A stretch of DNA of 64,000 nt, from assembly GCA_951406725.2 (NCBI GenBank), contig OX597833.1:53258001-53322000 (forward strand), given 5' to 3'. Source of the stretch: Octopus vulgaris (Eukaryota). The translations under genes and the position numbers were made by a program. The notes beneath the pieces are model-generated. The model had not been told where the DNA came from. It saw nothing but the letters and a program-made list of their open reading frames with translations, and did not search any database. How positions within the stretch are numbered: position 1 is the first letter of the stretch; each line of letters begins with the position of its first letter. This document shows positions 34,701 to 37,700 of this stretch, piece by piece.

Positions 34701-37700
34701 CTTTTTTTTTTTTTTTGGTTTTTTGGTTTTCTTTTTCAGTTAAACATCTTCCATAGATTTTTTCCAAATAACACACAGACAGACAGCAACAGAGAGAGAG
34801 AGAGAAAGAGGGAGAGAGAGAGAGAGAGAGAGAGAGAGGGAGAGAGAGAGACAGACAGACAGAGGGGGAGAGGGGGAGGGAGACAAACAGGGACAGAGTG
34901 TGATAGAGAGAGGGAGAGAGAAAGAAGGAGAGAGACAGAGCATGATAGAGAGAGAGAGGGAGGGAGAGAGAGAAACAGACAGGGTCAGAGCGTGATAGAG
35001 AGAGAGAGAGAGAAAGAGAGAGAGGGAGGGAGGGAGAGAGACAAACAGACAGGGACAGAACGTGATAGAGAGAGAGAAAGAAAGAGAGAGAGGGAAGGAG
35101 AGAGACAAACAGATAGGGACAGAGCGTGATAGAGAGAGAGACAGGGAGTGAGCATGAGGGACATAGGGAGTGAGAGACTAATAGGACCTTTCTTTAAACA
35201 TGAGAAAAGGCAGACCAAAGATGTCCTCTTTGATATTTTGATATGTAAAAAAAATGACATTACATGGAATCTACTACATGATGACAAACCATGTTACAAA
35301 GACATCATGTTTTGCTCATAATGCATGTATCAAAGGCAGCGAGCTGGCAGAAACGTTAGCACGCCAGGTGAAATGCTTAGCAGTATTTCGTCTGCCGTTA
35401 TGTTCTGAGTTCAAATTCCGTCAAGGTCAACTTTGCCTTTCATCCTTTCGGGGTCGATAAATAAAGTACCAGTTTCGCACTGGGGTCGATGTAATCAACA
35501 CTTAATCCCTTTGTCTGCCCTTGTTTGTCCCCTCTATGTTTAATGCTTTGTAGGCAGTAAAGAAATATATATCAAACATAATGCATGTATCAATGTTGGG
35601 GATGAAAAGGAAGAGAGAGAGAGAGAGAGAGAGCAGGGGAGTGTTTTTATTGTTGTTGTGGTTGTTTTTATTGAGGCTATTGTTGTAGCTGTTTTAATTG
35701 TTATCAAGTAAATATTTAAGAAGTCAATGGGACTTTTATTGAAAGATACAGTTCGCTGAAATACCACAGAAAAAGTAAATGTAGTGGTCATCCCTCTTAT
35801 ATGTATACATATATATATATATATATATATATATATATATATATCTTCAGTAAATCATAAATCCCAAAAAAGAAGCACACTAAGTTATAGAGCAGTAGGG
35901 AATATAAATACAGATAGATATAGCCATTCTTTAGAAGGGCCACTTGCTAGAGAGGTCATAGGCCTAGGGTCTGAAGAAACGCTGTAAAGCTAAGAGCTTT
36001 ATGTATGTGAAACCCAGGGTAACCCCATAGACCAACCATATATATATATATATATATATATATTCATAAAAAAACAAAAGAAGAAGACAGGTGGTGTACA
36101 AAACAAACAGATGCATTAGTATAACGCTCAGGAATAGAAAAAGTATTTTACGTTTCGAGCCTATGCTCTTCTACAGAAAGGGACACAGAAAAAAACAAGG
36201 AGAGAAAAAAAATGTGTGTAGTGGCTAACAGTGGAGGCATAGCTGTGTAGTAAGAAGCTTCCTTCCCAGATGCATGGTTCAGAGTTCAATCCCACTATGT
36301 GGCACCTTGGGCAAGTGTCTTCTACTATAGCGTCAGGCCAACCAGAACCTTGTGAGTGGATTTGGTGAGTGGATTAGGAAACTGAAAGAAGCCTATTGCA
36401 TGTGTGTGTGTGTGTGTATTTTATTATCGTTGTTTTAACACTCAGTTCTTCATGCTTGCACGAGCTGGACAGAATCTGTCGAGGTAGATTTTCTACAGCC
36501 AGGTGCCCTTCCTGTTGCCAATCCTCACCAGTTTCCAAGTAAAACTAACATCCCCATGACCAGACATGTTTACACAGATTACAGGAAACAAACAACACTA
36601 CTTGTATGATGATGATGTTCATTTGCAATTGACAAAGAGGTACACACACACACACACACACACACACACACACTAGATGTTTCTTGCAGTCTCTACCAAA
36701 TCCACTCACAAGGCTTTAGTTATCCAGTATTATAGTAAAAGGCACTTGTCCAAGGAACCATGTGTACATTATTTACATTCGAAAGATATTTGTCCTCATC
36801 TTGTTTGTTGTTAACACAACATTTCGGCTGATGTACTCCCCAGCCTTCATCAGGTGTCTTGGGGAAATTTCGAATTTGTATTCTCATTCCTAAGGTACTT
36901 TTCAATATTATTATCATTATTATTATTATTCAGGTCACAGCCTGGAATTGAACTCGGAATCTTGGGGTTAGTAGCCCGCGCTCTTAACCACTACACCATA
37001 TGCCCATAGGATTAAACTTGAAACCACGTGGTTGGAAAATAAACTTCGTAACCACACACCCATGCCTGCACACACACACACACACGTTCATGCATTCATA
37101 CATTACACACACACACACACACACACGCAAGCATTTGTACATTACAGGCACATACAGCATGTCAATGATTCTCAGTGAAAGAGAAGGAAAGAAGGAAAGA
37201 AAGAAGGAAAGGAAGAAGGAAAAGCAAAACAGCTTGCTTATTTTACTTTTTAACCTCCATAAACTGAAAATTTATCAAAGGGAAGCGACCTCATGGAAAA
37301 CACTTTAACATTGGGAGCAGATTAAAAATATAACAGCGAGTTAATAGGAGTTGTAGTAACAACAACAACGACATCACTAAACTAGATTTTTGTGTTTACC
37401 TAACAAGCTAAATGCCTTCTCCAGTACAGAATTGTATTTTCAACCATTCCTATTTTTTTTTGAAGTTAAACAGTTCGACAGACCCTTAAAGATTTCTATG
37501 TATTTTGCAGCATTTATTTTGTTATTATTATTATTGTTGTTGTTACTATTAAAGGATTATTACCATTGTTGTTATTATGACGAAGGTGGTGGAGTGGCAA
37601 AAATCAGGGCATTGGATAAAACACCTTGCAGTATATGTTCCAGGTTTGTACATTCTGAGTTCAAATCTTACCACGGTCAACTTTGCCTTTCGTCCTTTCG

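Follow-up and report, generated by a model that had tools for sequence, protein, structure and literature searches.

The window, a stretch of 64,000 nt from Octopus vulgaris, carries on its minus strand a composite retroposon unit between positions 37005 and 36765. All of the parts that the original prediction had read there, namely a head with Pol III A and B boxes, an (AAT)n tract, a hammerhead and a tail, were located in this interval. The unit opens with a 73-nt tRNA-derived head (36933..37005), identified by alignment to this genome's own tRNAs. Within the head lie an A box-like motif at tRNA positions 8–18 (36988..36998), called against the A box consensus, and a B box-like motif (36944..36955) whose GTTCRANNC core is intact in 105 of 152 units. 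An (AAT)n tract follows (36907..36930), which varies in length among aligned copies and is a frequent break point, and then a short linker with an ATG (36885..36887), which in a unit lying upstream of the ORF is the start codon of the family majority's 835-codon frame.

The predicted minimal type I hammerhead occupies 36813..36858 on the same strand. Helix I (5 bp) pairs 36858-36854 with 36817-36813, the CUGAUGA core (36853-36847) is followed by one extra A, helix II (5 bp) pairs 36845-36841 with 36830-36826, the GAAA stands at 36825-36822, and there is no helix III; cleavage is predicted by the hammerhead model after 36818. The 48-nt tail (36765..36812) ends at the first of two common 3′ end clusters and doubles as the start of the element's coding region. 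The whole unit sits within a SINE that is older and abundant, immediately beyond the B box of that host. The 5′ part of the host SINE, to just past the B box, lies at 37009..37060, and its 3′ part, interrupted by the unit, at 36700..36764, continuing beyond 36700 (both on the minus strand). No target duplication was found around the window unit.

A Decayed Family with One Head–Tail Junction

A DNA search of the 2.8-Gb genome with the unit returned 3634 candidate places. The best 40, which were scored, match nearly the whole unit; 38 of them cover it at 86–100%, the top rows at 86–91%, and all 30 of the best copies that were fetched are colinear across one and the same head–tail junction. Exact-motif counts agree with this abundance: the genome holds 5148 occurrences of a head 20-mer, 6321 of a 20-mer just before the hammerhead, 2195 of a 31-mer inside it and 1078 of a 20-mer at the ORF end, while reversed-pattern controls gave 0. 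The family is real, high-copy and decayed, and the many copies with one junction that had been predicted are there; head and hammerhead were not found to lead independent lives. Units differ from the majority by medians of 6–8%, the closest by 1.4%, and no intact young copy occurs among the fetched units. Given copies 6–8% off the majority, the true number of units is probably in the tens of thousands.

The consensus GAAAC, also foreseen, is the family majority. After GAAA, 54 of 123 scored copies read CGT, 25 TGT and 27 CAT, the two minority forms being attributable to CpG decay. Part of the unit is seldom repeated directly (one clear case, L074, among 30 hammerhead-anchored loci). Of 20 copies picked by hand, one had no tail; 4 of the other 19 show target duplications of 8–12 nt at both junctions. 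A search of this genome for older sister families returned only this pLTR family (30 of 30 loci).

The tRNA-Derived Head

The head aligns end to end with tRNAs of its own genome. The best of 11, Arg-TCT, matches in 47 of 75 columns (z 7.3 against shuffles), and by this alignment the head is tRNA-derived. Its cloverleaf fold has been lost (z +2.3 and +1.3), and ARAGORN and Rfam made no tRNA call for the head, nor any hammerhead call, in the window and in good copies; the A and B boxes are nonetheless retained. Upstream, the ORF stop and the head are separated by a 19-nt spacer, which repeats the first 19 nt of the head in inverted and worn form and, together with the head start, forms a 14-bp hairpin. 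Of 92 local folds compared, the 40-nt window at the head start is the most stable in two of four copies (−12.5 kcal/mol), while in the other two it comes 7th and 9th. In related loci at 33–48% identity (L320–L399), a strict pattern found no A box–B box pair behind the ORF match.

The Autonomous Partner

Two of 30 position-ordered hammerhead loci contain an inverted ORF piece followed by the unit. A search with that ORF gave 3059 candidates, from which 28 distinct position-ordered ORF ends were examined; 25 of the 28 have the head behind them, and 25 the hammerhead. At locus L302 the order is ORF end, unit 1–253, whole ORF, unit 2–237, and L301 begins at unit position 4 and continues into the ORF, so that direct pLTRs of partial tandems are present at both. 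Because the unit comes immediately after the ORF stop, and in full copies immediately ahead of the ORF as well, the whole of it, head included, is the pseudo-LTR (pLTR) of a Penelope-like element (PLE). Among nine ORF copies with some upstream pLTR, the head start is the 5′ end in one only (L185).

The majority frame, built from 28 segments, runs for 835 codons from the ATG that precedes the hammerhead. Pfam RVT_1 is found on L119 at 38.6 bits (cut-off 29.6; E 1.2e-9). PF26215 occurs in 19 homologues, 17 of which also carry PF00078 and one PF01541; the last, P0017, carries it over the element's C-terminal region. Pfam found nothing on two C-terminal stretches of the ORF, whose translation contains a GIY-YIG-like motif, and the element resembles the Poseidon type. 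By these domain matches it is a decayed endonuclease-positive (EN+) PLE with a reverse transcriptase (RT), a thumb and a putative GIY-YIG-type end. Among proteins, the relatives P0001–P0007 reach 52–69% identity. Relatives with DNA sequence appeared in an alignment scan at only 33–48% identity, none of them close, and a metagenome scan (with one protein) and a viral scan were empty. The PLE-like families that a Pfam GIY-YIG search of the genome recovered were different ones, whose matches to the unit stayed at chance level; they provided the T-run controls.

Two of the original claims can be judged from this linkage. The tail was expected to match the pLTR of an autonomous Penelope element, and it does so in the ORF-linked units and in L302 and L301. 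The proposal of a Pol III SINE served by Penelope-like machinery survives in its second half, since copies bear the insertion marks of PLEs, but fails in its picture of a SINE separate from its partner, since the head is part of the partner's own repeat. Judged by its place in the element, the window unit is a solo pLTR acting like a SINE and not a SINE with a borrowed tail. Every variant letter tested is common to solo and ORF-linked units.

The Hammerhead Lies in the Reading Frame

The pairing of helices I and II holds in 98% of 150 cells, compared with 21–55% in slid controls. No covariation was seen in them among 15 distinct copies, as expected for dead copies of one master. Related elements share the same hammerhead core with other stems. 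In the part of PMC4209133 that describes PLE minimal hammerheads, these carry an extra base before helix II, a G10.1–C11.1 pair and a palindrome at 15.2–16.2, and cleave weakly, as dimers. The family hammerhead has all three features and, by this comparison, is of the minimal PLE type. Its core CpG decays like other CpGs (45% kept vs. 50–69%). The window copy has U for C15.2, with which a core base is lost and the ACGU dimer palindrome broken; its six-letter palindrome is unpaired (+0.8 vs. −3.5 kcal/mol).

The hammerhead lies inside the 835-codon frame, downstream of the start codon. At the peptide level, the N-terminal stretch TPDDG...PKRCVNN of P0005 matches TPDEG...PKCC in L193, and in the N-terminus of P0005/P0023, a relative of ~55% identity, the start Met is likewise followed by the hammerhead-shaped peptide. 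A hammerhead inside the reading frame may therefore, as far as peptides tell, be conserved in more than one lineage.

Where Copies Begin and End

The original prediction had considered ribozyme-made 3′ ends. None of 111 3′ ends falls within 5 nt of the hammerhead cleavage site, which refutes that proposal: the ribozyme is not the maker of the inserted 3′ end. Instead, the ends form two clusters, about +45–60 and +80–95 past the site and ~35 nt apart. In the 30 hammerhead-anchored copies, a start at the cleavage site was excluded by the sampling design. Inverted 5′ partners and a tail extension, of 30–40 nt, are marks of PLEs given in the relevant part of PMC8557442, and EN+ PLEs also have direct pLTRs that come from partial tandems; the spacing of the two clusters matches the tail extension.

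For 5′ ends we took the first 90 of the 5148 head places on contig C1, which yielded 92 anchors within the first 56 Mb (15 ORF-linked, 77 solo); the anchors sat at +30, and the ends sampled are those upstream of it. All 77 solo heads begin between −19 and +23 of tRNA +1, 52 of them between −6 and +8, and 33 end at +1 or later, inside the 3′ arm of the hairpin. Among ORF copies the loss averages 0.17% per nt and nowhere exceeds 33% per 50 nt, whereas it is 84% at the head start; 4 of 28 ORF-anchored copies end within 90 nt of the anchor. A constant rate of 5′ loss is rejected with P ~2e-22 (using a hand-counted in-unit rate), a result that does not separate a start from a stall. Truncation inside the unit is frequent, the head start being reached by 10 of the 30 hammerhead-anchored copies (hand count).

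An inverted family piece lies at the 5′ junction of 54 of the 92 head anchors. These pieces start at scattered positions, and several of the junctions are clean fold-backs at the palindrome. By hand count, 14 of the 24 solo heads without such a partner still end within −6 to +6, and fold-back is therefore not needed for an end at this place.

Downstream, 74 of the 92 heads have a tail within 450 nt and 5 more have one further on or in part, whereas 18 have neither hammerhead nor tail within 450 nt, 13 of them still none in a longer stretch. Most of these 13 break at the AAT tract, where ORF-linked heads break too. A head-only SINE found no support among the 18 when they were re-examined in the longer stretch. 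Often (as at L130, L217, L222, L095, L100, L109, L148 and L246), other repeats follow or interrupt (AAT)n; some encode LINE-like peptides, and elements that target AAT may be breaking up copies of the unit.

Start Site or Stall Site

On tRNA-type promoters, Pol III starts where the solo 5′ ends pile up. We consider it moderately probable, judging from sequence, that the solo copies are pLTRs whose tRNA-derived head drives Pol III transcripts, which the element's own RT and endonuclease copy back. In this scheme, Pol III would start a few bases before tRNA +1 and read through the hammerhead, which would stay uncleaved, being inactive as a monomer, and through a tail free of T runs. The element's enzyme would prime within the tail and run to the 5′ end of the RNA, where the end of the cDNA would often fold back on the palindrome or join a second, inverted cDNA. 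The outcome would be SINE-like, with a master copy that is part of its autonomous partner. The head itself was probably captured once behind the stop codon by fold-back, as the worn inverted match between the spacer and the beginning of the head suggests. Trimming of the RNase P type at tRNA +1 is unlikely as a maker of the 5′ ends, for the cloverleaf is lost and many ends reach −6.

The hairpin at the head start means that stalling or fold-back can mimic a start site. The solo copies might thus be 5′-truncated Penelope copies, made from long Pol II RNA on which the RT stops or folds back at the hairpin, with the tRNA head a passenger, the relic of a SINE or tRNA copy captured in the repeat. 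This account is a serious alternative, though we think it less likely than a Pol III start. It draws on the rank of the hairpin window among 40-nt folds, on the origin of the spacer and on the fold-back junctions; in addition, most minimal hammerheads of animals are single truncated PLE ends according to PMC4209133, and the one Penelope promoter dissected is, according to PMC2377424, internal, TATA-less and LINE-like. However, windows of the ORF that are equally stable (−12.5 to −14.7 kcal/mol, near −350 and −670) cost at most one-third of copies per 50 nt and not the 84% seen at the head. The partnerless heads that keep to the same end, and promoter boxes kept while the tRNA fold was lost, also speak against it.

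Alternatively, on the strict reading of the original prediction, the solo units could form an independent SINE lineage, derived from the pLTR but maintained by master copies of its own that are distinct from ORF-bearing elements. Heads outnumber ORF ends about five to one, solo units are slightly nearer the majority (median 6.2% vs. 7.7% for ORF-linked units), and a three-letter haplotype marks 11 of 113 solo but 0 of 39 ORF-linked units scored at all three sites. Yet scoring all three was not possible in many ORF-linked units, each variant letter is present in both classes, and the solo majority has neither a deletion nor a new part relative to the pLTR; we regard such a lineage as improbable. 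Finally, a chance meeting at AAT tracts of a head-only, (AAT)n-tailed SINE with a separate hammerhead-bearing PLE end, to which the tail-less heads might point, is hardly credible, being largely refuted by the identical junction in the best copies, the tails behind most heads, the linkage of ORF and head, and the breaks of ORF-linked heads at the same AAT tract.

In RNA data at L302 (two raw runs and two contig sets), the two strands are covered to equal depth, and no peak of starts marks the head. Depth follows copy number, 59–66% of aligned reads run into unlike sequence, and no clear splice joint occurs among the joints displayed. These data speak neither for nor against a Pol III start. 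RNA from head-to-head pairs (e.g., L006–L011 and L247) would be double-stranded over long stretches. The commonest differences in the reads are A>G and T>C, which decay of the reference copy explains equally well.

Is the Whole Element Made by Pol III?

The 2653-nt majority has no TTTT run and 31 runs of four A. Under three codon nulls, the absence of TTTT from the 835-codon frame has P values of 0.024, 0.023 and 0.003; for the N-terminal 364 codons alone, the lack is not significant (P 0.12 and 0.41). Decayed copies contain 0.36 T4 per kb. A control PLE-like family of this genome has 5–17 T4 per 1.78 kb, but also more Phe. Related PLEs of other animals are T4-poor as well (114 observed vs. 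210 expected; 1.73 per kb), several of them without T4 over 500–700 nt, and scaling by the related-PLE factor brings P to an estimated value near 0.06. G4 runs are likewise absent from the majority and rare in controls too.

The lack of TTTT is thus a hint, weakened by the controls, that the full element may be transcribed by Pol III too. In the strongest form of this idea, which we hold to be rather doubtful, an autonomous coding retrotransposon would be transcribed wholly by Pol III from a captured tRNA promoter. Its mRNA would be 2.6 kb long, uncapped and purged of TTTT, dimer-dependent cleavage of the in-frame hammerhead would remove the start codon, and the same promoter would produce the SINE-like swarm. 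If true, such an element would be a missing link for the birth of a SINE from the end of its own partner.

Comparison with Known Systems

EN+ PLEs of the Penelope/Poseidon type carry a minimal hammerhead in the pLTR, as this element does (portions of PMC4209133 and PMC8557442). Here, however, the pLTR opens with the tRNA-derived head, and solo copies begin there. The Penelope promoter of D. virilis, unlike a tRNA-type head, is TATA-less and LINE-like and overlaps an intron (PMC2377424).

The schistosome elements SM-alpha and Sj-alpha are the nearest parallel, since a Pol III promoter followed by a hammerhead has already been described for them (the pertinent part of PMC6765202). Both systems are short repeated units of this design, the promoter being known here from sequence. 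Within that same part, the schistosome elements are often tandem and self-cleaving in vitro, have the promoter at the 3′ end of the cleaved monomer, and are not assigned an autonomous element with the same head (PMC6765202). By contrast, the octopus unit has a minimal hammerhead, is inserted as apparently uncleaved RNA and forms part of an ORF-bearing PLE, and its monomer ends are not set by ribozyme cleavage.

Like tRNA-derived SINEs (SINE2), the solo units have an A/B-box head that has lost its cloverleaf, are short and high-copy, start at the head and lack T4. They depart from these SINEs in that the tail comes from a PLE and not from a head-less LINE, and the partner itself carries the head. 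They also have internal ends, no poly(A) or simple-repeat 3′ tail, and only occasional target duplications.

Two further systems share single traits with the unit. The TRIMp3 elements Cassandra, Helenus and Ajax (as covered in part of PMC10886601) have a Pol III promoter derived from a small RNA in their terminal repeat, but they are non-autonomous LTR elements, and their autonomous partners are expected to depend on Pol II promoters, whereas the repeat here belongs to a protein-coding PLE. Animal non-LTR retrozymes are, in the main text of bioRxiv 10.64898/2026.07.22.740005, non-coding hammerhead units from PLE pLTRs, like the unit here, and that main text never mentions tRNA. They form head-to-tail tandem arrays, each unit with its hammerhead (same text and part of PMC7761336); the octopus units are mostly solo or head-to-head. 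The consulted parts of PMC6962438, PMC13282606 and PMC10294476 do not describe a tRNA-headed pLTR. We found no report of this design in the literature, although Repbase/Dfam, subscription papers and supplements could hold the family as a SINE or a Penelope. In sum, the element is a PLE whose pLTR carries a tRNA-derived head and which probably gives rise to SINE-like copies.

This arrangement may be relevant in several respects. First, SINE heads are thought to be added to LINE-derived tails, and Pol II is expected to be required by autonomous retroelements; a Penelope repeat that opens with a tRNA promoter would lead directly from an autonomous element to SINE-like copies, and it would name the Penelope enzyme as their mover. 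Second, a tRNA-headed pLTR may explain the origin of schistosome elements of the SM-alpha type. Third, the role of minimal PLE hammerheads becomes testable, with a motif that lies in a coding frame and does not determine the ends of inserted RNA. Finally, annotation would class thousands of such copies as SINEs, although these are pLTRs.

Other Repeats in the Window and Genome

A second, unrelated minimal hammerhead lies at 53345-53305 of the window on the minus strand (GAAACGUU), with a CUGACGA core and a GUUU/AAAC helix I; it is probably the end of another PLE family. On the plus strand, ~10170–11600 holds a broken RT ORF, which resembles an L1/Tx1-type LINE, and inside it a hammerhead-like pattern at 10503-10466 on the minus strand is probably due to chance. 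The window also contains five tandem 184-nt copies of a SINE-like unit, 94% alike (45110–46044), and 28 tandem copies of a 26-nt unit resembling part of a common SINE (39326–40051). Elsewhere in the genome, a young PLE-like family (L037, L042, L050, L056 and others; contigs C16, C8 and C5) has many intact 781-codon frames with a GIY-YIG end and 3′ tandem repeats rich in ATTGG and TGACGTC, with no hammerhead by pattern within ~500 nt. On contig C12 (L276), seven tRNA-Cys-type genes are clustered within 3 kb, two of them with altered anticodons.
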